Positions 20,931-61,974 of a stretch of DNA of 64,000 nt are shown here, piece after piece. The translations under genes and the position numbers were made by a program. A model generated the notes under the pieces. It saw only the letters and a list, made by a program, of their open reading frames with translations, was not told where the DNA came from and did no database searches. Each line of letters opens with the position of its first letter. Positions within the stretch are counted from its first letter, which is position 1. Source of the DNA: an uncultured Candidatus Saccharibacteria bacterium (GTDB lineage: Bacteria > Patescibacteriota > Minisyncoccia > Phycocordibacterales > CAYSCM01); contig CAYSCM010000001.1 of assembly GCA_964429815.1 (NCBI GenBank), positions 1 through 64,000 of the forward strand. Reading direction: 5' to 3'.

Positions 20931-22637
20931 CTATGCGAGGTTATGCTCGGAAAGGTAGGACAAAATGAGGTCGGCAGCTTCGATCGGTGAGAGGCCGCTC
21001 GTGTCAATGGTGAGCTCCGCGGCCTCGGGCGCTTCGTACGGGTCGTCAACGCCGGTAAGTCCCTTGAGGAGCCCCGCTTCGGCCTTCTTATAGAGGCCCT
21101 TAACGTCGCGCTCTCTGCATACTGCAAGGGGCGTCGCGACGTGTACTTCAATGTACGTGCCGTTTTTGCGGATAAGCTCGCGGTTCTCATCGCGCGACTC
21201 GCGGTACGGCGCGACCGCGGAACATATCGCGATGCCGCCGTGCTTCACGACTTCGTTTGCGACGAAACCAATGCGGCGGATGTTGGTGTTGCGGTCTTCT
21301 TTGGAAAAGCCGAGCCCTTTTGAAAGATGAAGGCGCACGACGTCGCCATCGAGGAGCGTTACCTTGCGGTCCTGGACCTCGAGGAGCTTGGTGTAGAGAA
21401 TGGTGGCTATGGTCGACTTTCCCGCTCCTGAGAGTCCCGTAAAAAAGATCGCGATACCGCGACTCTTAAGCGCCTGCCGATGTCCCCGTTTGAGCTCCTC
21501 GATAACCTCCGGGAATGAAAACCATTCGGGCACGGCCCCCTCTCCGCCGAGCATGCCGCGGAACTGCGTGCCGGAGATTTTGCCGATCTCTTCGCCTTCC
21601 CGTACTTCATTCATTGGCTTGTATCGTTTTTCAGCCACGGCATATACCATTTCCTGTGAGGTAATGATAGAGATACCGATATCTTTCTCAAACTTTTTCA
21701 CGAGCTCCTGTGCGGCATACGGTGCATAAAACGGTTTCCCTTCCGAATCATTGCCGGGTCCAGCGTGATCGCGCCCGACGATAAAGTGCGTGCAGCCGTA
21801 GTTGCGGCGAATGATGGCGTGCCAGAGCGCCTCGCGCGGCCCCCCCATGCGCATCGCGAGCTGAAGGAGCGAAAGGGTCGCGAACTCTTTCATGCGCGCC
21901 TCGTGGAGCTTTTTGTAGGCGCGCACGCGTGTGATGTAGTCGATGTCGCCTTCTTTCGTGAGACCGACCGTCGGGTGAAGGAGGATGTGGCCGCCGACGT
22001 TTTCAGCGGCACGCTTCATGAGCTCGAAGTGCGCGCGATGCACGGGGTTACGCGTCTGGAAGCCTATGACCTTCTCTACACCGTTGGCGCTGAAGTGCGC
22101 GCGAAGTTCTCGGGGTGTCTTGCGAAGCTCGGCGAAGTCGTGGCGCGTGGGAAGCTGGATGCCGACGACGGGCCCGCCAATGATGACCGGCTCAACCTCC
22201 CGCGTGAGGCGATAGACGCCGGGATGCTTCTCGTCGAGCGTACCGAACACCATCTGTGCCTCATGCGCCCGATCGGGCCGGAAGATGGATTCTACTTTCA
22301 AGATGGCGAGCGGCAGTCCGTACTTGTCCGCAAGCATTACCTCGTCGCCGAGCGCGAAGTGCGCATCCGCGATGTCGAGCGTGATCGGCATCGGGAATAT
22401 CTCCCCGCTGGGAAGTCGCATGGCGTTCACGACGCTCTTGTACTCCTCTTCGGTCATGAAACCGGAGAGCGGCGAGAACCCGCCAATAAGGATTTGCTCA
22501 AGATCGCACACCTGGTAGTCGGTGAGGTTAATGCTCGGGAGCGTCGCGGCGCGATCGAGGAGCGAGCGTTTCTGCACTGCGGAAGCGGGAAGTAGCTCCT
22601 TCACGTCAAGCTTAGCCTTGTGCGTGGTAGTGTGCAT
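20931..22637 (-). CDS. sat: Bifunctional sulfate adenylyltransferase (ATP sulfurylase) / adenylylsulfate kinase, PAPS synthesis
   Basis: N-domain QTRNPVHRAHFEL and HFIVGRDHAGPG; C-domain APS kinase P-loop FTGLSGAGKSTIA; start taken at Met MHTTTHKAKL (cat 22635-22637), ORF open to 22757. Confidence 0.9.
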   Translation of the reverse strand: MHTTTHKAKLDVKELLPASAVQKRSLLDRAATLPSINLTDYQVCDLEQILIGGFSPLSGFMTEEEYKSVVNAMRLPSGEIFPMPITLDIADAHFALGDEVMLADKYGLPLAILKVESIFRPDRAHEAQMVFGTLDEKHPGVYRLTREVEPVIIGGPVVGIQLPTRHDFAELRKTPRELRAHFSANGVEKVIGFQTRNPVHRAHFELMKRAAENVGGHILLHPTVGLTKEGDIDYITRVRAYKKLHEARMKEFATLSLLQLAMRMGGPREALWHAIIRRNYGCTHFIVGRDHAGPGNDSEGKPFYAPYAAQELVKKFEKDIGISIITSQEMVYAVAEKRYKPMNEVREGEEIGKISGTQFRGMLGGEGAVPEWFSFPEVIEELKRGHRQALKSRGIAIFFTGLSGAGKSTIATILYTKLLEVQDRKVTLLDGDVVRLHLSKGLGFSKEDRNTNIRRIGFVANEVVKHGGIAICSAVAPYRESRDENRELIRKNGTYIEVHVATPLAVCRERDVKGLYKKAEAGLLKGLTGVDDPYEAPEAAELTIDTSGLSPIEAADLILSYLSEHNLA

Positions 22638-22756
22638 TGAAATTCGATAGTAGCATGGTAGACGTTTTCTACAACCGGCCCACTGCGCCATGGTTACAGA
22701 CTTTTTGAATATAAAAGCGCCCGCACGTTGAAGTGCGGGCGCAGAGTCCTTATCCA

Positions 22757-23833
22757 TTAGGCGCTGAGGCCTCGTATCGCTGCGGCAGCGATCGTTCCCT
22801 CAAAGGGCCGGAGACGTTCCCGGACCATAGAAATGGGAGTCGGCACGAGTGCGAGGAAACGTTCGGCGATGAGCGGATCGTCCGCCTCCACGTCGGTACA
22901 AAGCCCGAGACGAACGAGCGGAGCCTGCGTCGCGCCCGCGAAATCCGCCTTGAGCATTTTTCGCGTCCGCTCGCCGACGACGGAAAGCGCCACCTTGCCG
23001 CTCACGACCGCTGCTGTGAGGGAGCTGGTAGCGCCGCCCGCAACGACCGCTTTCACCTGCGGCAGTGCGATGACCTCATCGGTCGTCGGCCCCACCGGAG
23101 AGGGTACAAGCCGTTCGCTGATCGGAGAAAAGCACTGACGCAAGTAGGTCCCGAAGGCCCTTCCTCCGTTTCCGGGCGCCGGTATTTTCTCCCACTTTGG
23201 GTGGAGCCGAACGCACAGACGCCAGGGTGCCGGAAGTTGTCGCATAAGCCGTATGGCTGCTGCAATCTGCTCCTCGGCCGCACCGTTCTCCGGCGAGCAA
23301 AACTCGCTGAAAACGATGACCGGCTTTTCCTTCCATTCCTTTTCCGCCCACGCAACGAGATCATCGCGTGGAATCGTGGGTTTGTCGGGAACGGCATGGC
23401 TGCCGACGATGACGGTCCGGAGGCTCCTGCCCCAGATCTTTTTCGCCTGCGATTCTCCGAGCAGGTCGGGCGTCAGAAGAAGGTCAGGGCGTTCGTAGCA
23501 ACGACTCGAAACTCCTGCTTGGTCCTCGAAACCGACCCAGGGGATCTTGCGCCGTGACGCCTGTTGCGCCGCGATGCTCTCCAGCTGCATCGGGGAGCTG
23601 AAGCCGACGGCAAGCGCGACGTGATCGAGTGGGCCACCGAAAAGCGGCCCGACGCCCTCGTCTGGATGTATCGTCTTATAGGATAGTTCCTGGCTTATCG
23701 CTACATCTGCACTGCGTCCGTGTTCTTCGCACCACAGTTCGCAGGAAATCCCTGCTTTGCGTAGGTGCGGGATCGTAGCGACTATCATCTTTGCGGGAGA
23801 GATATCCCGCACCAAAAAGATCACTCTTCCCAC
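22757..23833 (-). CDS. Hypothetical protein (possible GT-B-like / polymer-synthesis accessory protein)
   Basis: 358 aa, protein-like composition; antisense ORF 22733..23557 (+) is Arg-rich junk. Confidence 0.45.
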   Translation of the reverse strand: MGRVIFLVRDISPAKMIVATIPHLRKAGISCELWCEEHGRSADVAISQELSYKTIHPDEGVGPLFGGPLDHVALAVGFSSPMQLESIAAQQASRRKIPWVGFEDQAGVSSRCYERPDLLLTPDLLGESQAKKIWGRSLRTVIVGSHAVPDKPTIPRDDLVAWAEKEWKEKPVIVFSEFCSPENGAAEEQIAAAIRLMRQLPAPWRLCVRLHPKWEKIPAPGNGGRAFGTYLRQCFSPISERLVPSPVGPTTDEVIALPQVKAVVAGGATSSLTAAVVSGKVALSVVGERTRKMLKADFAGATQAPLVRLGLCTDVEADDPLIAERFLALVPTPISMVRERLRPFEGTIAAAAIRGLSA

Positions 23834-24733: not shown

Positions 24734-25192
24734 TTACTCACGTGGGTTTTCAAAAACGTCGATGTGTTCTTCGGGGACGGAAATTTCTATGTCTCTTCCG
24801 TAGACGATTCCCTCGATCTTCGGCGCAAGAAGTTCAATGACGCCACGCTCCTTCGTCTGTATATCCGAGGGAAGCGGGTAATAGATGTAACCTGAATAGG
24901 AACGACTCTCAAAGCGGATATCTACTGGAACCAACTGAAATGTTTCGGTAACTCTCGGATGCCATGTGAACGTCATCGTATAGTGGGGATCCTTCAAGCG
25001 AAACTGCCGGGGCGCGATCGTCATGTTGATCGTACCTGTGAAGAGAGACTCTGCTCCCGGAAGTCCTTGTTCGATAAAATACGGCATCTGTTGCACGACG
25101 GTCGCATTGAGGCCATCCTTGCCGGTTGCGCTCATGCCTGAGGCTATTTGATGGCCTTTTCGTATTTTTCCTTTGAGAACCCTTTTTTTCAT
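24734..25192 (-). CDS. DUF120 / CTP-dependent riboflavin-kinase-like domain protein
   Basis: LKGKIRKGHQIASGMS...TGTINMTI resembles the archaeal RibK G-x-V-x-x-G-x-G and GTLNV motifs. Confidence 0.45.
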   Translation of the reverse strand: MKKRVLKGKIRKGHQIASGMSATGKDGLNATVVQQMPYFIEQGLPGAESLFTGTINMTIAPRQFRLKDPHYTMTFTWHPRVTETFQLVPVDIRFESRSYSGYIYYPLPSDIQTKERGVIELLAPKIEGIVYGRDIEISVPEEHIDVFENPRE

Positions 25193-26017: not shown

Positions 26018-27046
26018 ATGTCTCGTATTCTTGCGGCAACCAAAGACTCCCAATCGGCTCTTTTCGTGCAGGAAATCCTGCAGAGCCTTTCACCTAGTCA
26101 CGAGATCTTTGTCTTTGCAGAAGGTATGTCAAAAACGTTTTGGAAAAATGCGGGAGTTCCGCTCTCGTACGAAGCCGACGTGGACGGATCATCAGACTCG
26201 AAGCTCGCGTCGGAGCTTGACCGCATCAACCCGCGACTGGTTCTCACCAGCACCTCCTCCCCCGCAGGAATCGAGGCAAAAATCGCCGACCTCGCCAAAG
26301 CCCGCCGCATTCCCCTTGTGATATTTGCCGACATATGGGGTGGCGTGTCCCGGATCGGAGCTAAAGCGGACCTCCTTCTTGCCTTTGACCAACAGGAAGA
26401 AGACATAGAAGCGATAGCGTATCCGGATATCCCTCGAGTGCTTGTCGGCGACCCTATGATCAAAAAAATTAAAGATTCCAAAAACTCAATGCGCAAAGAA
26501 ATCCAAGATCACTTCGAACACCTCGACCAACGAGGCCTTCGCACCTTGCTTATCGTGGGACAAGGGGGTTCCTACACAGGGGCCATGCTCGAGGTGGCAA
26601 GGCAATCCCTTTTGCGCAGTTCCTCCTCGTGGCGCGTTATTCCGCGGGTGGTCCATCCGAAAAAACCCGACCCCACCCTTACCAATCTATGGAATAGCAT
26701 CGCGCAAGAACTCGGAGATACCGTGCTTACCATCGATGGCGGTTGGAGTACCGACGATGTGGCGATCTGCTCTGATGCTACTATTTCCATTTTCTCTACC
26801 GTTCTCAGGTATGCGGCGGAGAGCGGCAAGCTTGCACTCTCGGTGTCGACGCCAGAAACCCTTGCCGGCATGCTCAAATCCACCTCGATCCCCTACTATC
26901 CGCCGACTCGAATTGGATATGTGCGCGAGATTACGGGACCGGTAAATCTCGATGAAGAGCTCAAAGTGTGGCAGGCCATGGATCGCAAGGGAAGAATTCC
27001 CTTCTCCTCGACAGTGGCAAGGGAGGCAATCGAGGGTTTTCTTTAG
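26018..27046 (+). CDS. Hypothetical protein
   Basis: 342 aa, no confident family from sequence inspection. Confidence 0.45.
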   Translation: MSRILAATKDSQSALFVQEILQSLSPSHEIFVFAEGMSKTFWKNAGVPLSYEADVDGSSDSKLASELDRINPRLVLTSTSSPAGIEAKIADLAKARRIPLVIFADIWGGVSRIGAKADLLLAFDQQEEDIEAIAYPDIPRVLVGDPMIKKIKDSKNSMRKEIQDHFEHLDQRGLRTLLIVGQGGSYTGAMLEVARQSLLRSSSSWRVIPRVVHPKKPDPTLTNLWNSIAQELGDTVLTIDGGWSTDDVAICSDATISIFSTVLRYAAESGKLALSVSTPETLAGMLKSTSIPYYPPTRIGYVREITGPVNLDEELKVWQAMDRKGRIPFSSTVAREAIEGFL

Positions 27047-27551: not shown

Positions 27552-28604
27552 TTATTTCCTGCGCAATTTTTTCTGAATGGGAATTTCCGCTTCGATGATG
27601 CGCTTAACGCCATCCCCAAAGGCCGCCTCCATCGAGCGCACATCCGCGACGAGCTGCTTAAACTCGGCTGGTTCCATGCTGGCCGACTGATCTGAACCAA
27701 ACATTTTTTTATCTAGGGTGACGTGGCGTTCAATGAGATGCGCACCGAGCGTGGCGGCGGCGACCGAGGTTGCAGTTCCCCGCTCGTGTCCGCTGTAGCC
27801 GACCACTACATCGGGAAACAGCCTTCGAAGGGTGTAGATCACCTTCAGGTTTAAATCTTTATCCTCAGAGGGGTAGGTCGAAACGGTATGAAGGAGGATC
27901 AAGTTTTCAGTACCGAGGAGATTGACTGCGGCGTGCACTTCTTCCATGGAACTCATGCCTGTTGAAAGAATGACCGGCTTTTTGCAAACATCCTTAATTT
28001 TTATGAGAAGCCCGTGGTCAGTGATGCTTGCTGAAGCAACTTTCAAGCAAGGCACCCCCAGTCGCTCCAGCACGTCAACGCTTTCCTCATCCCACGGCGA
28101 AGCGAACGCGAGGATCCCCTTCGCGTTTGCGTAGGAGAACAGGTCCCGGTACTCATCTTCCGTAAATTCGAGTGCCCACTTCAAGTCACCGTTGGTGCTG
28201 TCTTTAAAATCGCTCTTGCGCAGTCGCGCAACTGCCTCCTTTCCAAGAACACCCCGCTTGACTGCATTTTCGAGTACCGCGCGGTCAACAGGGCGCGGCT
28301 TTGCGAGTTCTTCGGCAGAATAGACGACCGGTACCGTGCGCTTTTGAAATTTAACGGCCTGTGCACCAGCTTCTACGGCCGCATCGATGAGGCGCTTTGC
28401 AATCTCGACATCCCCGTTGTGGTTTATGCCGATTTCGGCAATGAAAAAAATGGGATGCTCCTTCCCAACCGGGATACCTCCTACGTGGACGGTTTTCGGA
28501 ACTGGGGAGTGAAAACCGAGGAGTCGGCGCACGCTGCCTGAAATGCTCATGGGGGACACTATACTGCGCATATATATATGTTGTAAACGGTGGTTACTTA
28601 ACAA
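27552..28604 (-). CDS. N-acylneuraminate/ulosonic-acid synthase family (NeuB/PseI/LegI-like); alternative starts at 28571 or 28550
   Basis: IFFIAEIGINHNGDVEIAKRLIDAAVEAGAQAVKFQK, C-terminal SAF domain. Confidence 0.85.
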   Translation of the reverse strand: MLSNHRLQHIYMRSIVSPMSISGSVRRLLGFHSPVPKTVHVGGIPVGKEHPIFFIAEIGINHNGDVEIAKRLIDAAVEAGAQAVKFQKRTVPVVYSAEELAKPRPVDRAVLENAVKRGVLGKEAVARLRKSDFKDSTNGDLKWALEFTEDEYRDLFSYANAKGILAFASPWDEESVDVLERLGVPCLKVASASITDHGLLIKIKDVCKKPVILSTGMSSMEEVHAAVNLLGTENLILLHTVSTYPSEDKDLNLKVIYTLRRLFPDVVVGYSGHERGTATSVAAATLGAHLIERHVTLDKKMFGSDQSASMEPAEFKQLVADVRSMEAAFGDGVKRIIEAEIPIQKKLRRK

Positions 28605-28695
28605 TAGACAACTCCGAGAGTCAACGCGAGGTTACACCTCCCTCCACAAATGGAAAGGCGCCGACGATTGCCCGTCGGCGCCCACGTGAAAGGCC

Positions 28696-29409
28696 CTAGC
28701 CGATCACGATCTTCTTCAATTCCTCCCAAGAACGGACAAACTCGGCCTTGCGCTGTTTGAACACGTCCTCGCTTTGCTCGAGAGTTTCGAGAATGAAGCT
28801 GTCGATCTCCACGAGGCACTTGCCAAGTCCTAGTTCGGACTCGTCGGAGGTGTCGATGAGAAGGGGCTGATAGAGCAGTGGGAACTCAAATTGCTCGAGC
28901 GCTCCGCGAATACCGGTGAGATCAAAAATAGAGGCATTCGACTTGCGCCGCTCTTCCATGGAGCGATTCGCGCGATCGACGATCACCTCGGTTGCGGCAT
29001 AGAGGAGCACGACCTTTGGCTTGACGGAGCTTGGGGTCGCCGGTTCAGGCAACTCGTCACGCACGCGGGCCTCCGCTTCGATCGCCTTCACGTACGCGTC
29101 GGCGCGAGCGACCATGTCGAGAAAAGGCTTCTGATGTCCCTTTTCGGTGAGCATCACGGCTTCGGTCGCGACCATGGGAGCCCCGAGGACGAGAGCTTCG
29201 AGGATTGCATTGCGGACCTTTTCGTTTTTGTAGAGGTGCTCGCTCTTGGTTACGTGGGTGTCCCCGCGGTCTCCGTAGAGCTTCTTGCGGATGTCATCCA
29301 TCCGGACAAGGGTTGCCCCTTTCGCGTACGGAGCCTCGAGCACCCTGTTGAGAATCGTGGACTTGCCGGCATAGGGCATGCCGGAAGCGACAAACACCGT
29401 ACGGTCCAT
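28696..29409 (-). CDS. P-loop NTPase kinase (AAA_33/zeta-toxin-like), paralog A
   Basis: Walker A GMPYAGKST; C-terminal PLLYQPLLIDTSDES shared with 29571..30203. Confidence 0.6.
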   Translation of the reverse strand: MDRTVFVASGMPYAGKSTILNRVLEAPYAKGATLVRMDDIRKKLYGDRGDTHVTKSEHLYKNEKVRNAILEALVLGAPMVATEAVMLTEKGHQKPFLDMVARADAYVKAIEAEARVRDELPEPATPSSVKPKVVLLYAATEVIVDRANRSMEERRKSNASIFDLTGIRGALEQFEFPLLYQPLLIDTSDESELGLGKCLVEIDSFILETLEQSEDVFKQRKAEFVRSWEELKKIVIG

Positions 29410-29468
29410 GGGACCTCCTTATTTTGATTTTCCTTTCTGGATAGCATTTTACACTAGCGTCTACGCCA

Positions 29469-29514
29469 TGTCAAATTTTGCCATCTATATAATGCCGCGT
29501 CAAATTTGACAATA
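29469..29514. promoter_or_regulatory. Divergent promoter/operator region: half-site TGTCAAATTTT (29469-29479), TATATAAT box (29486-29493), perfect 12-bp palindrome GTCAAATTTGAC (29499-29510)
   Basis: Seen directly in the 161-bp AT-rich spacer between the divergent kinase paralogs. Confidence 0.5.
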
Positions 29515-29570
29515 AAAAAATTAATGTAGAGTATTCGCGGCAAGAACCCACCAGCCCCAAGGAGCGCGAG

Positions 29571-30203
29571 ATGAAGCACCTATACCTTCTTTCTGGGCTT
29601 GGCACCAGCGGCAAGGATTACTGGGCGCAGCGGATACTCGCCTGGTACAAGGAAGAGCGCCCCGAGCTCATCACGGCATTCGTCGGTATCTCGCAGGCCC
29701 GCCTCAAGTACTGGGGCAAAAGCGCCGGCATGACGGACGCAGACCACCTGCTCAAAAACGAGATCACGCTCACCGATGTTGCGGTCGAGTTTATGGCGAA
29801 GAATACCGACGTGGTCGTCCTCAACATGACCATGCTCACGGTGCTGCAACACCAGGTACCGTTCATGGCGATGCTGAACAAGACTCGCGCGCTCCTTGCC
29901 CTCAAGGAGCGCGAGCTCCGGCACCGCTTCCCCGGGCGGACTCCGGAGGAAGCGGGCATCGAGCTGCGCGCGATGGTCTTTACCTGCGATTTCGAGACGA
30001 CCAAGCGCCGCATCGAGGCTCGCAATCGGGGGGAGAACAAATCTGGCGGGATTCTCGATATCGCCGAGTTCGAAAAGGGCCGCAAAGCCTTCGAACTCCC
30101 GGCTCTCTACGAGGCCATCACGGTCGATACCTCGGACGAGTCCCCCTCGTACGAGATGGCCAGGAACGTTACGATCCGTAACCACATTGGCTTCCCTACT
30201 TGA
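29571..30203 (+). CDS. P-loop NTPase kinase, paralog B
   Basis: Walker A SGLGTSGKDY; C-terminal PALYEAITVDTSDES. Confidence 0.6.
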   Translation: MKHLYLLSGLGTSGKDYWAQRILAWYKEERPELITAFVGISQARLKYWGKSAGMTDADHLLKNEITLTDVAVEFMAKNTDVVVLNMTMLTVLQHQVPFMAMLNKTRALLALKERELRHRFPGRTPEEAGIELRAMVFTCDFETTKRRIEARNRGENKSGGILDIAEFEKGRKAFELPALYEAITVDTSDESPSYEMARNVTIRNHIGFPT

Positions 30204-30226
30204 TTCGGGGTTGCTCGAATCAGAAA

Positions 30227-30252
30227 GCCCCGACGTACGTCGGGGCTTTTTT
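30227..30252. terminator. Bidirectional rho-independent terminator: palindrome GCCCCGACGTACGTCGGGGC followed by TTTTTT
   Basis: Seen directly; lies between the convergent genes 29571..30203 (+) and 30251..31213 (-). Confidence 0.65.
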
Positions 30253-32268: not shown

Positions 32269-32440
32269 GCCCTTCTCCTTCTTTCGTGGCCAACTCATGG
32301 GGCCCCTCGCAGTTGTTCGGGTTTGAGACGTGCAAAATCCTGGGCCATACTACTTACCGCTTGTCAAATAGTCAACTCCCCGATCTATAAAAAGTTAAGA
32401 GCGGTCCGAAGACCGCTCTCGTAGGGCAGAAATCCGCAGG

Positions 32441-33028
32441 TTAGCCGTAGGGCAGCTCAAAGGGATCCTTCTTGTGGACGACTTCGACCAGGAAGTTCGC
32501 GAGGTCGCGAATCGCACCCTCGCCGCCTGGCCGGATGCTCACGAAGTGGCAAATCCTCTTGATGGCCTCCTCGCCGGAGATCGGCGCTGCCGAAAAGTGC
32601 ACGGCCTTGAGCATCGCGACATCGACAAGGTCGTCGCCCATGGCCCCGCATTGATTAAGTGTTCCCCCGTGTTTGGCGAGCCATTCCTTGAGCGTCTCGA
32701 GCTTCTTGGGCCCGCCGCACCCTTCGAAAAGGTCGATGGGGGGCCAGGCACCGCTTTTGCAGGAAGGGAGATTGTTCAGCCGCTCTACGAGCGCGCGGAC
32801 ACCGGCTGCGTTATCATCCTTCTCGTTGGTGATGACGCACAGGCGGATGCCGAGCGCCCGCATAAGAGAGAGCCCCTGGCCGTCGTAGTACGTGCGGATT
32901 TTGGGTTTGAATTTCACGCCCCCGATCTCGACGCCTTCCCACACGGTGTTTGGAAAAAGGCATCCGTCGGAATCAAACGCGAAGAAAGAGACTTCGCGGG
33001 CACGTTCGAGTACTTCGGTGGACCACAT
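32441..33028 (-). CDS. KdsC/YrbI-family HAD-IIIA sugar-phosphate phosphatase
   Basis: FFAFDSDGCLF (DxDGxLT-type motif I), GDDLVDVAML; start at MWSTEVL. Confidence 0.75.
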   Translation of the reverse strand: MWSTEVLERAREVSFFAFDSDGCLFPNTVWEGVEIGGVKFKPKIRTYYDGQGLSLMRALGIRLCVITNEKDDNAAGVRALVERLNNLPSCKSGAWPPIDLFEGCGGPKKLETLKEWLAKHGGTLNQCGAMGDDLVDVAMLKAVHFSAAPISGEEAIKRICHFVSIRPGGEGAIRDLANFLVEVVHKKDPFELPYG

Positions 33029-33160
33029 GGTCCCTCCTGTTTGTTTGTTGGCTACTGTTTGGCCGGACGCATTCTGACACATCCATTTTATTTGTCAATA
33101 TTCTTCCAGGCTGTCTGGCAATAGAAACCCGTGCTAAGCTTCGCGAGTAACAAACGCGCT

Positions 33161-33697
33161 ATGGACCACCTTAGTCCAGAACTTAGGAAGAAATTCTCGC
33201 AGGTACAGTTTCTCGCGCTCGACTTCGACGGCATTTTCACCACGGGCCACGTGTACGTGCGCCAAGATGGAGAAGAAAGCGTTAAGTGCGACCGGCGCGA
33301 CGGCTTTGGGATTGAGCTTCTGCGCCGAGCCGGAGCCGTTAAAGCTTGCATCATCTCGCGAGAGCCAAACCCCGTCGTGACGGCGCGCGCAAAAAAGCTC
33401 CAACTCCCGGTGTGGCAAGGGATCGAGCGCGGAGGAGGAAAGCTCGAGGTACTCAAAGCTCACGTGGCCGAGCTCGGCATTGCGCTTGAGAACGTCGCAT
33501 ACATGGGGGATGACCTCATCGACATTGCGGTGCTACGAAGCGTCGGACTCCCTATCAGCGTCCCGAACGCCCATCCGAAAGCGCAGAGAGAGGCCCTCTA
33601 CGTCACCAGAGCAGGCGGCGGGGACGGAGCGATCCGTGAGGTCGCCGAGCTTCTCTTGCTAAGCAAAGGTTTCGACCTCGAGGAGCTCTCCCGTTAG
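33161..33697 (+). CDS. KdsC/YrbI-family HAD-IIIA sugar-phosphate phosphatase, second paralog
   Basis: LALDFDGIFTTG, YMGDDLIDIAVL; ORF begins at 33131, Met at 33161 preferred. Confidence 0.75.
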   Translation: MDHLSPELRKKFSQVQFLALDFDGIFTTGHVYVRQDGEESVKCDRRDGFGIELLRRAGAVKACIISREPNPVVTARAKKLQLPVWQGIERGGGKLEVLKAHVAELGIALENVAYMGDDLIDIAVLRSVGLPISVPNAHPKAQREALYVTRAGGGDGAIREVAELLLLSKGFDLEELSR

Positions 33698-34564: not shown

Positions 34565-36307
34565 ATGACTCTCGAGCTCAGGGACTTTGTCCCGAAGAAG
34601 GCCCTCGGGCTCCATCCCGCCGACGTTGTCGCTGGGATTCCCTGGGGAGGACTCTCCGGTATGCGGGTGTGTTTCATCAACATGCCACTGCGGGAGTCCG
34701 CGAAGCCAAATACCCCGCCGCAAGGTCCCGGCCTTATGGCGGCCCGTCTTATGCAGTATGGCGCTGACGTCTCGATTATCGACCTCAACGGCTACCGTAT
34801 CGATGACGAAGAAGCGCACAAGCGCGGACTCGTCAATGGCCGACACGTCTCCCACAATGAGGCGCGTCAGCTCATCGAGGCGACTTTCCACAAGTTCGGC
34901 GAACCGCACGTGATTGGCCTTTCGGGGAAAATCACGACGTTGCGCTGGCAGGAGTGGACCGCCAAGACGTGTCGTTCGCTCGCTCCAGAGGCGTTTCTCA
35001 TCTCCGGCGGTGGGCTCGCGACCGAGTTCAAAGAAGGACTCTTCAGCTGGGTGCCGCAGCTCGACGCGGTCGGCCACTCGGAAGGCGACGACATCATGGT
35101 CGCCTGCGTGAATGACGTTCGCAAGAGCGGAGGCAAGCGCGAGCGCATGACCGACTCGCCCTACTACGTGGGCGAAATCGGCGGACGCCACCGCTTCCTC
35201 TATGCGGGCGATCGACCAAGGGACCTCGATGCGCTACCGTTTGCTGCGCTCGAACTTCTCGAAGAAGACGTCTTTGGCAATCGCATACTCGACGAGTACA
35301 TCGCGACCCCCGTATGGGGACTCGCGGCGAACAACTCGTCGGCGGCACCTTTCGAGATGAGGAAGTCTCTCACGACCGTCTCCTCTCGCGGCTGTCCGTA
35401 TGCCTGCGCGTTCTGCTTCCGTGGAGCGCAAGGCGAGCAAAAGTGGGGGATCCGCTCCCCCGAGAACCTGCGAGCCGAAGCCGAGTGGATGATTCGGAAG
35501 TATGGCGTGGATTTCATCGGGTTTCCCGATGACAACTTTGCCGTAAGCGTCAAGCGCTGCCAATCGCTTCCGGAGGCCTTTGACGGGCTCTCGTTTCGTT
35601 GGGGCACGCATACGCGCCTTGACGAATGCACGCTCGATCGGATCGTGCCCATGGCGAAAGCTGGGTGCATCTATATCGGCGTCGGTGCCGAATCGGCCTC
35701 GAAACACACCCTCTACCGCATGAAAAAGGGCGGACACATCGTCCGCAAGGACGGCGTGGAGCGTCTCACGAAATGGAACGGGTTCGAATTTCCGACAACG
35801 ATGATCGAGGGGATTCGAAATTGCCGAGACGTGGGTATCCACGTGAACGCGACCTGGATCATGGGATACCCAGGGGAAACCTTGGAGGACCTCAAGACCT
35901 CGGTTGCTTTCATTTCCTGGCAACAGGAGCACTACACCAAGGGATTGGTGCCCGGCACGCCGGAGTATCAAAATGCCTCGGCGTCGGTGAATCGACGCAT
36001 GTTCACGGCGACGTGGTATCCGGGGACCACCATGGTGGAAGCCCCCGAAGCCACGAAACCGCGGGAGCTCCTCGGCGAGCACTTCGGGATTCGTTTCGTC
36101 GAGAAAGGAAGCGGGCATGCACACAAGTTCGTCCCCGTTCCCGACGACGCAATGAAAGCCTATGTGCTGGAACTCGATGACGCGACTAAGATCCTCCACG
36201 GATCCGACGGAGCGCCCATCAACTACTCGGACATGCCGGAGGAGGTCTTCCTCGAGGCCCGTAGTCACATCGATTCGGGTCAAACGGAAAAGATCCTGTC
36301 GATGTAA
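34565..36307 (+). CDS. B12-binding-domain radical SAM enzyme
   Basis: 580 aa; N-terminal B12-binding-like region, CxxxCxxC cluster SSRGCPYACAFCF. Confidence 0.85.
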   Translation: MTLELRDFVPKKALGLHPADVVAGIPWGGLSGMRVCFINMPLRESAKPNTPPQGPGLMAARLMQYGADVSIIDLNGYRIDDEEAHKRGLVNGRHVSHNEARQLIEATFHKFGEPHVIGLSGKITTLRWQEWTAKTCRSLAPEAFLISGGGLATEFKEGLFSWVPQLDAVGHSEGDDIMVACVNDVRKSGGKRERMTDSPYYVGEIGGRHRFLYAGDRPRDLDALPFAALELLEEDVFGNRILDEYIATPVWGLAANNSSAAPFEMRKSLTTVSSRGCPYACAFCFRGAQGEQKWGIRSPENLRAEAEWMIRKYGVDFIGFPDDNFAVSVKRCQSLPEAFDGLSFRWGTHTRLDECTLDRIVPMAKAGCIYIGVGAESASKHTLYRMKKGGHIVRKDGVERLTKWNGFEFPTTMIEGIRNCRDVGIHVNATWIMGYPGETLEDLKTSVAFISWQQEHYTKGLVPGTPEYQNASASVNRRMFTATWYPGTTMVEAPEATKPRELLGEHFGIRFVEKGSGHAHKFVPVPDDAMKAYVLELDDATKILHGSDGAPINYSDMPEEVFLEARSHIDSGQTEKILSM

Positions 36308-36431: not shown

Positions 36432-37394
36432 ATGAAGATAGTACGGTGGTCCATACCCAAGCACCTCGATCTGTCGATTGAGATTTCCGGTAGAGAACAT
36501 ATGGCACAGGGAGAAAAGATGGGGTCTACGAAAGCCTTGGATGTCCTGCGCGGAATAACCTTCAGCGGCTCAGCGCCGGCGATACAGTTTGCCGATGTCG
36601 AGTCTTTATTTTCCTTTGTAGAAAAAAAATTTTTACATAAGACATTTGCGGGAGTCGGCATCGAAGTCGGCGCGGGGCCGATGATATTTAGCTCGCTCCT
36701 TACGCGCTCACGACCAAACATTCAACAGATGTATGGAATCGAACTAAGTGGCGGTATCGTAGAATTCATTGCCCCGGGAGTGGTTGATGAATTGCTGGGA
36801 CCCAAGAGTGAAAAGGTAGTCGGGGTCATCGGCAGTTTCGACGCGATGGAGCTTACAAGCGAGAGTGTCGATTTTGTTCTTGATTTTATGTCGCTTCACC
36901 ATGCGACCGACCTCGGAGAGGCGTTCGCCGAATGCTACCGGGTGCTAAAACCAGGCGGCTTCGTTGTTCTTTTTGACAAGGCTCGCCCCGATTCCTTCAC
37001 CTCTCAAGACCTGGAGGGATTGCTCAATACCGAGTACAGCGATGAAGAGAAAAAACGCTTTGGGGTGCCTTCCGGCGAACACTTTACACGCCGGATGAAC
37101 GGGGAAAAAGAATACCGGCTTAAAGATTGGTCGGCGGGGGCCTTAGAGGCCGGTTTCCCGACCCTTATGCATTGGCGACTCGCGCGCACCAACGTGCCGG
37201 GTATCTCAGGATTGTACCGACGTTTGCTTTCTCATGTGCCGCTACGCACCCAGATGGCTACTACCGCTATTGCACAAAGCGTACTGGGCAGCGGCTCAAG
37301 AGTGAAGTTTTCACAAAAAAATTTGGTGTACTCGCGGTACGTGAACCCCTTCCCCCGCGAGATCTCGCTCATGATCGCGCACAAGGCTTACTAA
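36432..37394 (+). CDS. Class I SAM-dependent methyltransferase
   Basis: GIEVGAGPM (motif I), VLKPGGFVVL. Confidence 0.75.
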   Translation: MKIVRWSIPKHLDLSIEISGREHMAQGEKMGSTKALDVLRGITFSGSAPAIQFADVESLFSFVEKKFLHKTFAGVGIEVGAGPMIFSSLLTRSRPNIQQMYGIELSGGIVEFIAPGVVDELLGPKSEKVVGVIGSFDAMELTSESVDFVLDFMSLHHATDLGEAFAECYRVLKPGGFVVLFDKARPDSFTSQDLEGLLNTEYSDEEKKRFGVPSGEHFTRRMNGEKEYRLKDWSAGALEAGFPTLMHWRLARTNVPGISGLYRRLLSHVPLRTQMATTAIAQSVLGSGSRVKFSQKNLVYSRYVNPFPREISLMIAHKAY

Positions 37395-38299
37395 CTTCTC
37401 CACGCGCTCAGGTCGCGCCCGGTAAATGCCTCGAGTTTTTGCAGTTCGGGTTCATAGCGAGCGCGGAGGGCTTCTTTGAGCTTCGGGTCGAGCGTCCCGT
37501 AGCTAGCTTCCCCGGTCCCCGCCCTCGTGTCGATGGAGCGCACTACTTTTTGGTGGAGCGGCGTTTTGCGGAAGAGGGAGAGGAGGGGCTCTCCGAATGG
37601 CAGGGCTTTGAGTAGCTTCCGCGCCCTGAGCGCGTGTCTGCGCAAGAGTGTCGCTCCGGCGGAATTTATGGTCGTGGCGAGCGAGGGCGGCACGAACGAG
37701 GCATCGACGCCGATGAAAGAAAAGATATCTCTCATATATTTTTTTGGGTCGGCACGCATATCGTCATAGAACGTAATGAGTATCTGGTCGCGGGAAAATA
37801 CCTTGAGATAATTTTCGAGGTGCTTCATATAGAAGCTCTCCTCGATAAACGACGGTTTAGTTTTAATAATTTCCTCAAGGGTTGGGAGCTCATGTGCGCC
37901 CTTTAGCTTCGTGTACATGTAGTGGGAAAAAAAGCGCTCCGTAGGGTTTCGCAATACCGCAATGATCTTCGCTTTAGGAAAATGTGTACGGAGGCGCTCC
38001 GGCACCTCGGGTGCGTGAATATAGATAGGAGTGACTTCTCCGTATACCCTCTTCCCTACACAGTGACCAAAATGTTCAAAATACCCTTCGAGAGCGCCGT
38101 TGTATTTTGTTTTCCCCACCAAATCAGTGCGCCAGAAACTTTGCGTCGTGTTAAAAAAGTTGAGCTCTTTGGGTTCGGAAACACAGACCTCGGGGTGCTC
38201 TTTGAGACATTGGTGGAGCCAGGTGGTGCCCGTCCGCTCCGGACCAATCACGAAGAAATCAATGGAAAAAGGCTTTGCTGTAGATGAAATGGTACTCAT
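37391..38299 (-). CDS. Sulfotransferase (PAPS-dependent)
   Basis: 5'-PSB-like VIGPERTGTTWL and 3'-PB-like IIAVLRNPTERFFSHY motifs. Confidence 0.8.
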   Translation of the reverse strand: MSTISSTAKPFSIDFFVIGPERTGTTWLHQCLKEHPEVCVSEPKELNFFNTTQSFWRTDLVGKTKYNGALEGYFEHFGHCVGKRVYGEVTPIYIHAPEVPERLRTHFPKAKIIAVLRNPTERFFSHYMYTKLKGAHELPTLEEIIKTKPSFIEESFYMKHLENYLKVFSRDQILITFYDDMRADPKKYMRDIFSFIGVDASFVPPSLATTINSAGATLLRRHALRARKLLKALPFGEPLLSLFRKTPLHQKVVRSIDTRAGTGEASYGTLDPKLKEALRARYEPELQKLEAFTGRDLSAWRS

Positions 38300-40596: not shown

Positions 40597-42366
40597 TTAT
40601 TTTTTTTCGGGAAGAAGCTTAACCATCATGTTGTCATTGAACTCTTTTCTTGCAAGTAGCGGCTCGGGATCCTCGAGCGGCCGACCGAACTTTACCTGCG
40701 GGATTACGCGGTGCTTCGGGTTAATCTCGATGTTACAAAACACAGGCCCCCTCATCGCGAGCACCTTCTTAACTCCCCCGCTCAACTCGCGGTTCTTCTT
40801 GATCGTAATGGTTTTGAAGCCAAAGGAGGAAGCAATTTTGGCAAAGTCTGGGAACGCAAGTCCTCCCCCTTCCGAAGACGCAAGATACGCCGAATTAAAC
40901 CACTGATCTTGAGTCTGCTGTATCATACTGTAGCCGTGGTTATTCAATACAAAAATCTTGATCGGAAGTTTGTGCTTGAGAAGGGTACTTAACTCTTGCA
41001 AATTCATTTGGAGTGAACCATCTCCGGTTACACAAATAATTGATTTCTTGTTAAGCGCCAGGCTTACCCCAATGCTCGCCGGCAAAGCCCACCCCATCGC
41101 GGTGTTGTTCCAATCGTGGTAAAGACGCTGACCTTTCTTGAAGGAAAATCCCTGCATCATCCATGCGACCGTGCAGCCGGTATCAATGACCATTACTTCG
41201 TTCTGACGCGTGTAGCGAGAGAGCTCCTCAACAAATACATACGGATTGACCCCTTTCTCTTTGTAGTACGCGGGTGGGCACATGGGATATTTTTTCTTCC
41301 ATGCGGCAATACGTCTAAGCCAGGGTGAGATGTCGTTTTTTGGCAAACGTGCGGCGTGCTTTTGAAATGCCTTCAGCAGCTCTTTTGCGTCACCGGAGAT
41401 ACGCACATCGACTTTCAGGCCAAATTTTTTAAACTTCTTAAGTTCGTAGGGGTCAATATCGATGACTATCTTTTTTGCCTCTCGCGCAAACGTGTTGGGA
41501 GGACTACCCGTCGATTTGGTATCAAGACGGCTTCCGATTGAGAGGATCATGTCAGCGTTCTGGACGGCAAAATTGGCAAACCGCGTGCCGTGAGTGCCAA
41601 AGGTGCCGATGCGAAGTGGATGACTCTCTGGCAGGAGATCCCCTGCCCCCCATGTGAGTGCCGCAGGAAAGCCGAGTGTTTCCAAAAGTGAGATGGCCTC
41701 TTTTTCGGCCCCCGCGAGGTGGATTCCCCACCCAAACACAACGACGGGGCGCTTCGCCTGCCGTAGATAGTTTATGCTTCGAGCTACATCAACCGGCGCT
41801 TTCTTCTTCTCGACGGAGGGTGTAAACGAGGGAAGCTCTCCTGGATTAATTTCTCTGCGCTGAATGTCGTCGGGAATATCGAGCACTACGGGTCCTGGCC
41901 TACCACTTCGCGCCAGAAAGATCGCTTTCTCAAGCTCGTAGCGTATGCGCCTCTCATCGGTGATGAGTATCGCGTACTTAGTGATAGGACGATACATTTC
42001 GACCGTTGCCGTTTCTTGAAAACCCACTTGCCGCACGTTGGTATGACCTTTCATCCTAAAGGTGGCTACTTGGCCGGTAATAAATATGACGGGTACCGAA
42101 TCGTAGTAGGCGGAGCACACTCCCGTGATCATGTTCGTAGCACCTGGCCCTGAGGTGGACATCGCTACACCGAGGCCACCCGTGGCCCTCGCGTACCCGT
42201 CGGCAGCCATTGCCCCCGCTTGCTCGTGTCCTGGACAGATGACCTCCATTCCCCCCGTGCGCGCCACCGAATGAATAAGGTGAAGGGATGCTCCGCCGGA
42301 GATGGCAAAGACATGCTTCACCCCTTCTTTGCGGAGAACCTGTGCTACGTAGTCGGTGAGCTTCAT
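40597..42366 (-). CDS. Thiamine-pyrophosphate enzyme, acetolactate-synthase-large-subunit-like (YerE-type candidate)
   Basis: 589 aa; N-terminal Pyr domain, central domain, C-terminal PP domain GDGSLQMNLQELST. Confidence 0.88.
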   Translation of the reverse strand: MKLTDYVAQVLRKEGVKHVFAISGGASLHLIHSVARTGGMEVICPGHEQAGAMAADGYARATGGLGVAMSTSGPGATNMITGVCSAYYDSVPVIFITGQVATFRMKGHTNVRQVGFQETATVEMYRPITKYAILITDERRIRYELEKAIFLARSGRPGPVVLDIPDDIQRREINPGELPSFTPSVEKKKAPVDVARSINYLRQAKRPVVVFGWGIHLAGAEKEAISLLETLGFPAALTWGAGDLLPESHPLRIGTFGTHGTRFANFAVQNADMILSIGSRLDTKSTGSPPNTFAREAKKIVIDIDPYELKKFKKFGLKVDVRISGDAKELLKAFQKHAARLPKNDISPWLRRIAAWKKKYPMCPPAYYKEKGVNPYVFVEELSRYTRQNEVMVIDTGCTVAWMMQGFSFKKGQRLYHDWNNTAMGWALPASIGVSLALNKKSIICVTGDGSLQMNLQELSTLLKHKLPIKIFVLNNHGYSMIQQTQDQWFNSAYLASSEGGGLAFPDFAKIASSFGFKTITIKKNRELSGGVKKVLAMRGPVFCNIEINPKHRVIPQVKFGRPLEDPEPLLARKEFNDNMMVKLLPEKK

Positions 42367-45508: not shown

Positions 45509-46732
45509 TCACGCGCTCCCGCGGGGAGCGAGGGTGTGCGGCCAGGTAAGTACGCCAAGATCTGCCTCCTCGATGTTCTCTTTCCATTTTCGCATATCCG
45601 AAACCGAGATAAGATGTGCAAATTCCTTTTTCAGGGTTTCGAGTGTTTCCTGTTCCCAGGAAACTTTCTGAAATGCTTGTCGTTGCCACGGAAACGAGTC
45701 ACCTTCCTTGAGCCAGCTGTAGTTGTTGGCGACGTCGGGCATCACGAAACTGGACGCAAAGTACGCTATATCATCCCGCAAAAAGGCCCACGAGAGAGGG
45801 CCACTCGAGACGCACAGGTAAAAGAGCGCGCGCTGTACTAGGGCTAGATCCTGCTCGCTGTTCGTCCCATAGTCTTTGGTAAAGATAACGTTTGGCCCGC
45901 GCAGCGCTTCATTGATCTCGGCTCCCCTGCCTAAAATAATGAAGGTGCACTCGGGATACTGCTTCGAACAGTACCTAAAAAATTCTCGCCAGACTTTCGG
46001 TTTAGCGTTTCGGTGCGAGGCAAAAAAGGGATTGCTGCGCAGGCTGACCGCTACGGCGTATCCAGGCGCATGTTTTTTGATAAATGCTCGTGCCCACGCA
46101 TCAGTGAGGGCGGGTATCTTCAGCTTCGGTAGAGATCCGTACCGCTCGTAGAATTCCTTGAAAAACAAGTAGCCACGACGGTAGGGAGAATTGCTATTTA
46201 CGTAGTCAAAAAGAGATGGGGTGAGGATATACTTTCCCCGGCGCTCAGCGAGAAAAGACTCGAATTCATCCCTGGAATCGAAAATGTGGACCGACCCCAA
46301 CTTTGGATTGGTACGCAAAACAGGAAAAATCTCAATGAAGTGGAGCGGGACATTTTCTTTGGTGATCCAACCCGCATATTTAGAATGTCGACTAGGTCTT
46401 TCTCTGTCGTATACAAAAGCGTAGTCGATCTTTTCAACTTCATGGATGTGGGCCTCGCATAGCGTCCTGATCTGGTGCTCGATCAGTATCCCAAATGAGA
46501 CATCGGTGGTGAGAAAATCATTAATGCCCAGAATCCTTCGATCATTTCGCTCGTGGCGACGCAGAACGTAGCGGGCATAGCGCATCGAACCAACAATGCC
46601 TCGACGATACCAACGTTCATACACGCGATACGTCAAAAAATTGACTGCGACATCAAAGGCGGGTACCAAAAAGGGGGGCAGCATTTTTCGAAAATGCACA
46701 ACCGCAGGTTTCTTGTTGAGTGCGCGCAACAT
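45509..46732 (-). CDS. Hypothetical protein (possible glycosyltransferase-like)
   Basis: 407 aa; no confident motif. Confidence 0.45.
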   Translation of the reverse strand: MLRALNKKPAVVHFRKMLPPFLVPAFDVAVNFLTYRVYERWYRRGIVGSMRYARYVLRRHERNDRRILGINDFLTTDVSFGILIEHQIRTLCEAHIHEVEKIDYAFVYDRERPSRHSKYAGWITKENVPLHFIEIFPVLRTNPKLGSVHIFDSRDEFESFLAERRGKYILTPSLFDYVNSNSPYRRGYLFFKEFYERYGSLPKLKIPALTDAWARAFIKKHAPGYAVAVSLRSNPFFASHRNAKPKVWREFFRYCSKQYPECTFIILGRGAEINEALRGPNVIFTKDYGTNSEQDLALVQRALFYLCVSSGPLSWAFLRDDIAYFASSFVMPDVANNYSWLKEGDSFPWQRQAFQKVSWEQETLETLKKEFAHLISVSDMRKWKENIEEADLGVLTWPHTLAPRGSA

Positions 46733-61073: not shown

Positions 61074-61876
61074 AGACTCCTGCGACGCTTATAGAGAAAA
61101 TTGAGCCAGCCGAACGCTAGGTTAAATGCGAGCTGCCGTGTCCACGAAAGATTCTCCTTCCAGGACTCATCGAGCTCTATTTTCTCACTCGCTTCCCCCT
61201 TCATACGGTTGCCACTTATTTGATGATGCGGAAAGGCCCGAAAAGAGAGCATGGCGGGTTCGTAGGAGAGGCCGACCGCTTCCAAGATGCGGGCGAGGGA
61301 TTCCTGCGGATGCGCAACAAGCTCCTCATAGCGCAAGAACAGGTAGCGCGCTTTGACCCTCCTGCGCAGAAGCTCGACTTTGGCGTTCATGAAAAACCAG
61401 CGCGAGAGCGAGAACCACACATGGGCTCCATATTTACGCAGATAGGATGAAAATACCCCGCGCCCGTCTCGCACTACGTGCACGATTACGGGGTCGGGGA
61501 GCGCCCGGCACATGAGTTCGGTATAGTCAGCGTTCTTTGATGAGTCGACAACGACCGAGGCCCCCTTGGTAGCGGCAGCCTTGGTATAGATGGTACGGAC
61601 ACGTTCTCGGTACTGCGCGATGTCGACCGCCTTCCCTGTCTTGGCGTAACGATAATTTTTTGAGCCGAATAGAAAACCGCTTTTGCTTCGGGCTACGTCA
61701 AAGAGTTCCCCTTTCGGGAGAATGTCCCGCCAAAAAGGGTCACTGGTGGGGTCCGAATCCTCCGAGACGAGCTCGCCGATGCCGATGACTTTCGAATGTG
61801 AGTCGAGAAGAAGGTCCAGGAGTGTTGAGCCACTGTGCCCACTTCCGAGGATAAAGAGTACTTGGGGGATTCGCAT
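61070..61876 (-). CDS. Sulfotransferase (PAPS-dependent), second copy
   Basis: Start at MRIPQVLFILGSGHSGSTLL (P-loop-like 5'-PSB); VHVVRDGRGVFSSY (3'-PB). Confidence 0.7.
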   Translation of the reverse strand: MRIPQVLFILGSGHSGSTLLDLLLDSHSKVIGIGELVSEDSDPTSDPFWRDILPKGELFDVARSKSGFLFGSKNYRYAKTGKAVDIAQYRERVRTIYTKAAATKGASVVVDSSKNADYTELMCRALPDPVIVHVVRDGRGVFSSYLRKYGAHVWFSLSRWFFMNAKVELLRRRVKARYLFLRYEELVAHPQESLARILEAVGLSYEPAMLSFRAFPHHQISGNRMKGEASEKIELDESWKENLSWTRQLAFNLAFGWLNFLYKRRRSL

Positions 61877-61974
61877 GAGAGTGAGTGTTACACGTAAACT
61901 AAATCGACATCGGGAAAGTTGCAATGAGGAGCCTGCGTTTTACTTGTGGCGCTGAGGGGATATAATCCTTACCT

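Follow-up and report, generated by a model that had tools for sequence, protein, structure and literature searches.

A divergent pair of paralogous P-loop kinase-fold proteins in the surface-glycan island of a Saccharibacteria bacterium

What do two related P-loop proteins, encoded on opposite strands on either side of a short AT-rich spacer, contribute to the glycan genes around them, and is the palindrome in the spacer an operator? We examined this question in a 64,000-nucleotide stretch of an uncultured Candidatus Saccharibacteria bacterium (assembly GCA_964429815.1, contig CAYSCM010000001.1, positions 1 to 64,000 of the forward strand), hereafter the window. A preliminary description, made from the letters alone, had proposed a pair of small-molecule or sugar kinases under a shared repressor or, alternatively, a toxin-like module. 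The two genes, here called K1 and K2, and the region that separates them are:

28696 to 29409, minus strand: K1, 237 residues, a P-loop kinase with canonical catalytic residues
29571 to 30203, plus strand: K2, 210 residues, a paralogue of K1 with an altered active site
29410 to 29570: divergent control region, 161 bp, 42% GC (window about 55%), with three copies of AAATTTGAC

Taken together, our results make it reasonably probable that the pair belongs to a P-loop kinase subfamily of the candidate phyla radiation (CPR, or Patescibacteria) that functions in a glycan pathway of the CMP-ulosonic-acid type, with K2 as a partner of K1 and with the two genes transcribed from back-to-back promoters.

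K1 and K2 are ancient paralogues with a P-loop kinase fold

The K1 open reading frame (ORF) carries the Walker A motif GMPYAGKS and the C-terminal block FPLLYQPLLIDTSDES; that of K2 carries GLGTSGKD and LPALYEAITVDTSDES at the corresponding places. The proteins are 27% identical over 200 residues (BLASTP, E=3e-14). The coordinates, the shared C-terminal block and the paralogy of the two opposite-strand P-loop proteins were confirmed as initially described. The initial statement that both possess a Walker A motif held for K1, whose sequence fits the canonical GxxxxGK[ST], but not for K2, where GKD takes the place of GK[ST], a non-canonical site that had been missed. K1 and K2 are ancient paralogues, and a recent duplication is excluded.

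Both proteins passed the Pfam AAA_33 (PF13671) cut-off of 27 bits narrowly, K1 with 33.0 and K2 with 28.2 bits, and their predicted structures (pLDDT 87.5 and 88.7, respectively) displayed the three-dimensional fold of nucleotide and small-molecule kinases. They are P-loop kinase-fold proteins of the AAA_33 type, class membership being established for the broad AAA_33/P-loop kinase class only. The structural similarity to P-loop kinases on which the kinase proposal depended was present, and that proposal survives.

At the level of the fold, K1 and K2 resemble GntK (PDB 1knq and 2bdt) and the kinase domain of PFK-2 (1bif), with identities of 11-16%. In contrast, there was no significant sequence match to GntK or PFK-2; the family to which K1 and K2 belong has motifs of its own, and K1 an extra C-terminal helix. 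Within AAA_33, a generic family that includes bacterial Pnkp-type kinases, K1 shares the arrangement of Walker A and D-x-x-R, whereas the scores are marginal, the group is sharply bounded, and K2 lacks the Walker A Ser/Thr and the Asp. Searching PDB chains with the K1 and K2 sequences returned nothing meaningful, and a profile built from 59 family sequences gave P-loop-level matches only (E about 1e-4 to guanylate kinase). An NCBIfam scan yielded no match for K2 and only noise for K1, with no usable family and no gluconokinase model, and a literature search found nothing relevant to the kinase family.

Membership of the APS kinase, gluconokinase and zeta/PezT families was tested by sequence and not found. 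An adenosine 5'-phosphosulfate (APS) kinase function for K1 or K2 was also rejected on the grounds that the window already encodes a bona fide ATP-sulfurylase/APS-kinase fusion at 20931-22757.

The pair belongs to a small family found in CPR bacteria

A profile search of 1.84 billion representatives produced 89 matches, 76 of them below 1e-10, followed by a sharp drop-off; the family is small and discrete, and not a section of the generic AAA_33 continuum. AAA_33 was matched by 47 of the 59 full-length members. A word-indexed search of 5.8 billion clusters retrieved four relatives for K1 and six for K2, and a metagenome scan added only duplicates of known loci. A locus identical to that of the window is present in source samples, among them SRR12313482 and SRR12313479. 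The named sources were all CPR/Patescibacteria, namely Parcubacteria GW2011_GWF2_52_12, Vogelbacteria, Yanofskybacteria and Saccharibacteria; a contig from the last of these (L017) shares Wzy-SecA synteny with the window, and its proteins are 50-69% identical. Judging by these sequences, the K1/K2 subfamily appears to be uncharacterised, small and known so far from CPR bacteria only. The motifs that set it apart are T-x-x-E-H-x-x-K-N-E, M-L-T-x-x-x-H-Q-x-P, E-x-P-x-x-Y and D-T-S-D-E-S.

K2 has a conserved but altered active site

In K1 numbering, the positions conserved in the family are G10, G15, K16 and S/T17 of Walker A; D38 and R41 just after beta2; T54, E57, H58, K61, N62, E63 and R66; E83 at the end of beta3; T88, H92, Q93 and P95; R146 in the lid; and E175, P177, Y180 and the D186-T-S-D-E-S block. 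K1 possesses every one of them. The features in which the two proteins can be compared are:

K1, catalytic motifs: Walker A GMPYAGKS; D38-D39-x-R41 after beta2; E83 at the beta3 end; R146 in the lid
K1, C-terminus: IDTSDES block, then an extra helix
K2, altered positions: Walker A GLGTSGKD; GISQAR for MDDIR; N85 for the beta3 acid; L67 for R66
K2, retained family motifs: T55, H59, K62, N63, E64, H94, Q95, R147, E175, Y180 and TSDES

T4 Pnk, shikimate kinase and APS kinase illustrate the usual roles of these positions in P-loop kinases: Mg2+ is handled by the Walker A hydroxyl together with the beta3 acid, and an Asp after beta2 positions or activates the acceptor hydroxyl. The Asp that follows beta2 in the family presumably corresponds to D35, the general base in T4 polynucleotide kinase. 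In place of this canonical triad K2 has D16, S41 and N85. The three residues normally responsible for Mg2+ handling and catalysis have been replaced in K2. It has kept the glycines and the lysine of the P-loop, the arginine of the lid and the putative substrate-binding motifs of the family.

These replacements recur throughout the K2 clade, in which (in K1 numbering) position 17 is D (GLGTSGKD[YF]W), position 38 is S or A (GI[SA]QAR), position 66 is L and position 83 is N. All four departures from the family consensus (S17D, D38S/A, R66L and E83N) were kept in all five or six K2 orthologues, which like K2 itself retain most of the family-conserved positions (P0006-P0008, P0010 and the L022 fragment). 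Across the family, the Walker A site is S/T in 57 of 62 sequences, the beta2 site is D in 61 of 67 and the beta3 site is E/D in 56 of 69. K2 is an ancient, conserved, active-site-altered paralogue, and neither a pseudogene nor a recent duplicate.

The closest relative of K2 (P0009, 64-66% identical) lies on a 1.1-kb contig of the Joint Genome Institute (L022, 1-1134), in whose first ~550 bp an unrelated gene on the minus strand extends into the N-terminus of K2. A chimeric assembly or else a rearranged, truncated copy is the probable explanation, and the contig was unusable for testing whether the spacer is conserved.

In a neighbour-joining tree the GKD clade was sister to a 'short' clade of 182-210 residues, which keeps S17, D38 and R66 and in which the beta3 acid has been lost as well. 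One member of the short clade is the sole kinase on its 4.3-kb contig. Loss of E83 alone consequently does not prove inactivity.

Family members are linked to KdsC-type phosphatases in glycan loci

Around the pair, the window encodes the following enzymes:

27552 to 28550, minus strand: NeuB-family synthase, condensing with phosphoenolpyruvate (PEP), without a SAF domain
32441 to 33082, minus strand: KdsC/YrbI-type HAD phosphatase
33131 to 33697, plus strand: KdsC/YrbI-type HAD phosphatase, divergent from the preceding one
34565 to 36307, plus strand: B12-binding radical-SAM enzyme

The phosphatase at 33131-33697 scored above the TIGR01670 KdsC cut-off and matched E. coli KdsC at 1e-27. As the window also contains two CTP_transf_3 genes, a synthase, a KdsC-family phosphatase and a CMP-transferase are co-located. 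The nucleotide-sugar setting initially given to the pair was borne out both by these glycan genes and by the equivalent loci found in relatives.

In those loci, KdsC-like Hydrolase_3 genes occurred within ~3 kb of the kinase without exception, with up to four paralogues; a CTP_transf_3 gene (CMP-sugar synthetase) was found in all loci for which 10 kb or more of context was available, and a NeuB homologue without the SAF domain in four of five loci. The linkage to the phosphatase may be very close. In L001 the HAD stop codon overlaps the start of K1, and P0058/P0094 (L024 10001-11302) is a natural kinase-Hydrolase_3 fusion of 433 residues encoded directly after the radical-SAM gene. Two further ORFs beside K1 in L001 (202 and 193 residues) were checked as hidden copies of K2 with a negative result, and are additional KdsC-like paralogues.

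The radical-SAM enzyme (560-598 residues) is 57-69% identical in relatives from other CPR lineages (L001 851-2533; L017 8131-9831; L024 8102-9898). In five locus types its gene lies no more than ~6 kb from the kinase, and in three of these (L017, L024 and the P0020 contig) it is adjacent to the kinase or HAD gene; its best matches were weak, to BchE, PhpK-type P-methyltransferases and HpnJ. Other recurrent neighbours are a methyltransferase of 314-320 residues, a class-III aminotransferase, an AP_endonuc_2 TIM barrel and short-chain or aldo-keto reductases.

Two observations on these loci stand by themselves. L024 also holds a canonical cluster of NeuB with SAF domain, acetyltransferase and CMP-synthetase ~5 kb downstream of the fusion. 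Beside the Yanofskybacteria K2-K1 pair (L018 6918-8090), a KdsC-like HAD is fused to a nucleotide-binding-type SLOG (LDcluster4) domain, and the 342-residue protein at 26018-27046 of the window has a faint SLOG-family match (E 0.08).

Because relatives in other genomes occupy equivalent glycan loci, a small-molecule role in a sugar pathway would be the best reading of the pair. By analogy, in function K1 and K2 would most resemble GntK/PFK-2-type sugar-acid and sugar-phosphate kinases placed in a phosphorylated ulosonic-acid route. A common order of steps, from a kinase or sugar-phosphate through PEP condensation and a KdsC-family phosphatase to a CMP-synthetase, is seen in the animal GNE kinase/NANS/NANP route, in Bacteroides 2-keto-3-deoxynononic acid (KDN)-9-P synthase and phosphatase, and in KdsA/KdsC. 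With such known phosphorylated routes the window locus shares homologues of the synthase, phosphatase and CMP-transferase. However, where the known routes have a kinase it is ROK-type, whereas here the kinases are of the P-loop type, and unlike those routes the window locus includes a B12 radical-SAM enzyme, methyltransferases, an aminotransferase and several phosphatase paralogues.

K2 was found next to a K1-type gene in all three lineages in which its neighbours are visible. The arrangement is divergent in the window and tandem, K2 preceding K1, in L012 and in Yanofskybacteria (L011/L018/L019), where the two genes abut or nearly abut. K1-type genes were often found without K2 (loci L001-L010, L013, L016, L017 and L020). 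These patterns bear on whether the pair comprises two active kinases that perform different phosphorylations in one pathway, for example on successive intermediates, the phosphates then being removed by several HAD paralogues. We regard this as a possible but doubtful reading. The presence of two to four KdsC-like paralogues per locus points to more than a single phospho-intermediate; the P-loop Gly and Lys, the lid residue R147 and most motifs are kept in K2, which is under clear purifying selection; its Asp16 could take over the coordination of Mg2+ from the Ser and the beta3 acid; and the short clade, which lacks that acid, provides the sole kinase of its locus. On the other hand, K2 has replaced the Walker A Ser/Thr, the beta2 Asp (otherwise invariant in 61 of 67 members) and the beta3 acid together, and wherever it was seen it had a K1 beside it, whereas K1-type genes often stand alone. 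From its sequence and placement, K2 is most probably a partner of K1 that is rewired or non-catalytic, as part of a heterodimer or as a regulatory subunit, and not a second ordinary kinase.

The same context bears on two other proposals. In T4 Pnkp the kinase domain precedes a HAD-IIIA phosphatase domain, an arrangement shared by the 433-residue fusion of the family, and T4 Pnkp presumably also bears the D-D-x-R motif seen in K1. The family could be imagined as a polynucleotide 5'-kinase/3'-phosphatase system that heals nucleic acid ends. We consider this very unlikely: unlike in T4 Pnkp, the HADs that accompany the kinases are true ulosonate-phosphate phosphatases of the KdsC/YrbI type; a ligase, Hen1 or another gene for RNA repair was not found nearby; the glycan-locus context holds in at least five lineages; and gluconate kinase and PFK-2 score at least as well as PNK. 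PFK-2/FBPase-2 likewise combines a kinase with a phosphatase, as the fused family member does.

A zeta/PezT-like toxin that phosphorylates UDP-GlcNAc, or another toxin-antitoxin or defence system, is the least probable of the proposals we considered, and this reading is largely refuted. The family assignment initially given, AAA_33/zeta-toxin-like, was upheld in its first half by the AAA_33 scores and failed in its second: there was no match to Zeta_toxin (PF06414) for K1 or K2 (E<=1) or for the 59 relatives (E<=0.01), and zeta and PezT, both UDP-GlcNAc 3'-kinases, ranked 38th and 55th for K1 and fell outside the top 60 for K2. No small antitoxin ORF was found, and PADLOC returned no match. 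Upstream of both genes lies only the 161-bp spacer, and in relatives the place is taken by a HAD phosphatase or a paralogous kinase. Embedding in biosynthetic glycan operons is conserved, with translational coupling or fusion to the HAD phosphatase.

The palindrome coincides with probable back-to-back promoter elements

The 161-bp AT-rich spacer, its perfect palindrome, the half-site and the TATAAT box were all located as initially described. The following elements were found in and around the spacer:

29499 to 29510: palindrome GTCAAATTTGAC, GTCAA-AT-TTGAC, two back-to-back -35-type TTGAC pentamers
29469 to 29479: half-site TGTCAAATTTT, which is the -35 box of P1
29446 to 29474, minus strand: predicted K1 promoter P1, TTGACA (29474-29469), 17-nt spacer, TAAAAT (29451-29446)
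29506 to 29534, plus strand: predicted K2 promoter, perfect -35 TTGACA (29506-29511) and weak -10
29527 to 29532 or 29529 to 29534, plus strand: K2 -10 candidates TAGAGT (spacer 15) or GAGTAT (spacer 17), assignment uncertain
29503 to 29498, minus strand: -35 box TTGACG of a possible second K1 promoter, with 17-nt spacer and TG-extended CAAAAT
29488 to 29493: perfect TATAAT without a recognisable -35, an alternative K2 -10
29414 to 29420, minus strand: K1 Shine-Dalgarno sequence AAGGAGG, 4 nt before the ATG
29559 to 29564, plus strand: K2 Shine-Dalgarno sequence AAGGAG, 6 nt before the ATG
28656 to 28683, minus strand: K1 intrinsic terminator, 12-bp stem with 9 G-C pairs, -24.2 kcal/mol, between K1 and neuB
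30222 to 30251: bidirectional terminator after K2, -28.1 kcal/mol for the folded stretch, z -5.4, shared with a convergent dehydrogenase gene

P1 matches 11 of 12 sigma-70 consensus positions, lies ~30 nt upstream of the K1 Shine-Dalgarno sequence and ATG, and is the only exact TTGACA-N17-TAnnnT in the window (0.17 expected); the K1 start inferred from it is near 29439. The strong hairpin terminators after K1 and K2 indicate that each gene is monocistronic. No Rfam family was found in the window, which leaves no riboswitch in the spacer, and the palindrome folds only weakly as RNA (-3.1 kcal/mol).

The initial proposal of a shared repressor can be formulated as the AAATTTGAC repeats being sites for a dimeric repressor that co-regulates both kinase genes, besides or instead of being -35 boxes. 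The 9-mer AAATTTGAC occurs three times, on both strands, within 41 bp (29470-29510). Only 0.14% of shuffles reached that number (P ~0.0014), and the triple occurrence is non-random. The perfect 12-nt palindrome is accompanied by the 10-nt inverted repeat AAATTTGACA, with 23 nt between its arms. Moreover, the palindrome lies over the K2 -35 box (or at about +1 if TATAAT is the -10) and the half-site over the K1 -35 box, which are typical operator positions.

The palindrome alone is weak evidence, however, as such a sequence is expected by chance: the window contains 19 perfect 12-nt palindromes, and 5.6% of dinucleotide shuffles of the spacer contain one. Its sequence also fits ordinary promoters of this genome. 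In the window TTGAC[AT] occurs 2.88 times per kb in intergenic and 0.40 times per kb in coding DNA (a 7.3-fold enrichment), and is correctly oriented upstream of ~10 transcription units, including those of neuB, a cytidylyltransferase, a dehydrogenase, a HAD and the radical-SAM gene, frequently with an aaat or aata 5' flank. Since this flanked box is general in the window, it explains the inverted repeat AAATTTGACA, whose common 10-mer aaaT-TTGACA fits the extended -35 consensus of other window promoters. Doubled -35-like boxes are likewise present at 32375/32367 and in L018.

The distribution of the motif did not favour a repressor either. The three copies of AAATTTGAC in the spacer are the only exact ones in 64 kb, and no further copy of GTCAAATTTGAC with up to 2 mismatches was present in the window besides the half-site. 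AAATTTGAC was absent from all non-identical related loci, including the upstream regions of L001, L017 and L018, these relatives being distant and differing in gene order. The upstream region of the Yanofskybacteria K2-K1 operon contains TTGACA-17-TATTAT and no palindrome. A helix-turn-helix or other regulator domain was not detected among the ~55 window proteins scanned. We found no positive evidence for a shared operator, and within the 64-kb window and among distant relatives with another gene order the palindrome proved unique and unconserved, as the preliminary description had anticipated for the case that its operator was mistaken. Repressor sites are thus an unlikely explanation, and the palindrome and half-site would most simply be the -35 boxes (aaaT-TTGACA) of back-to-back promoters.

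The doubled -35-like boxes of the window (TTGACTATTTGACA, 32347-32375) and of L018 (TTGACCAGTTGACA, 9235-9248) are in direct orientation and precede glycan genes. Duplication of the TTGAC box may be widespread among the promoters of these organisms.

The pair lies in a large surface-glycan island

The surface-glycan island that contains the pair spans at least 45 kb, from ~18.7 kb to the window end, and covers most of the genes scanned there. It encodes a Wzy-type polymerase, a Wzx flippase, a TagF-like transferase, a TagD-like cytidylyltransferase, a PfkB kinase, a GmhA-like SIS protein, dehydratases, a DegT aminotransferase and glycosyltransferases. The scanned window proteins included no DNA-binding regulator, PEP mutase, RNA-repair protein or antitoxin-like protein. 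A phosphonate or fosfomycin-like cluster, which the P-methyltransferase-like radical-SAM enzyme, a thiamine pyrophosphate (TPP) enzyme, a cupin and the cytidylyltransferases had suggested, was rejected in the absence of PEP mutase from this set.

The ATP-sulfurylase/APS-kinase fusion and two sulfotransferases (37391-38299 and 61070-61924) are encoded inside the island, which implies a sulfated surface glycan in a CPR bacterium. A TPP-dependent enzyme (40597-42366), an E1 alpha/beta dehydrogenase pair (48250-50269) and a TylC3-like sugar C-methyltransferase (61975-63243) are found there as well and suggest branched-chain or C-acylated sugars. Four island proteins had no Pfam match (22757-23833, 358 residues; 24734-25192, 152 residues; 26018-27046, 342 residues; 45509-46732, 407 residues), and an NCBIfam scan of the first three returned nothing.

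Outside the island, positions 1-6000 of the window are GC-rich (60-67%) with a positive GC skew of +0.19 to +0.34 and contain 30-nt repeat units ~2.4 kb apart, the stretches 1690-1757 and 4126-4192 having the same consensus. A large, repetitive protein rich in Pro and Ala is probably encoded here on the minus strand and continues beyond the window start.

Discussion

KdsC-family enzymes strip the terminal phosphate from ulosonic acids made from PEP and a phosphorylated aldose. The tight and sometimes physical linkage of the kinase family to KdsC-type phosphatases, near a NeuB-type synthase and a CMP-synthetase, makes a kinase-phosphatase scheme the simplest one. K1, which has all canonical catalytic residues, would phosphorylate a sugar or sugar-acid intermediate in an ATP-dependent manner. 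The phosphate would persist through the NeuB-type PEP condensation, the radical-SAM tailoring or both, until a KdsC-type HAD removes it and the product is activated with CMP. Such a scheme would parallel the phosphorylated routes to N-acetylneuraminic acid (Neu5Ac), KDN and 3-deoxy-D-manno-octulosonic acid (Kdo). The two genes would be separate monocistronic units, each with its own Shine-Dalgarno sequence and terminator, expressed from back-to-back promoters of the sigma-70 type.

Several of our observations weigh against parts of this account. No member of the family has been characterised, and the sequence likeness to solved structures is limited to the P-loop. The conserved basic residues (R41, K61, R66, H58 and H92) would fit a nucleotide-linked or carboxylate substrate as well. 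The Yanofskybacteria locus showed no NeuB within 10 kb and the B12 radical-SAM enzyme is not universal among the loci, so that the phosphorylated NeuB route is only one way of linking kinase and phosphatase. With respect to K2 as a non-catalytic partner, the short clade serves as sole kinase in a locus despite its missing beta3 acid, and the new Asp16 might be a substitute Mg2+ ligand. In the spacer, the K2 -10 is poor and the consensus scanner called no plus-strand promoter; a 14-nt direct repeat and a third, minus-strand copy of the motif somewhat exceed the needs of two promoters; and a K2 start set by TATAAT at 29488-29493 would place the palindrome at about +1 to +11, a classic operator position.

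A more far-reaching version of the kinase-phosphatase scheme is that the kinases, the multiple KdsC-type phosphatases and the B12 radical-SAM enzyme form an undescribed CPR route to a C-methylated or aminated ulosonic sugar via phosphorylated intermediates, in which K2 would be a pseudokinase subunit that controls or channels flux through K1. The signature of K2 that this version invokes is the loss of the catalytic Asp from the beta2 position together with the gain of an Asp in the P-loop. We put it forward as speculation that is more likely wrong than right by a wide measure; if true, K2 would be a rare bacterial P-loop small-molecule pseudokinase.

For the reading of intergenic regions, the spacer provides a caution: in this organism, a palindrome that contains TTGACA and lies between divergent genes has the appearance of ordinary promoters. 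The surface glycans of CPR/Patescibacteria, which live attached to host cells, have hardly been studied. The kinase family described here is a consistent, uncharacterised part of CPR surface-glycan chemistry, and its coupling to KdsC-type phosphatases, including a natural fusion, turns this association into a concrete, testable biochemical hypothesis. The K1/K2 pair might in addition be a small model system for the loss or rewiring of catalysis in a paralogue of a P-loop kinase.

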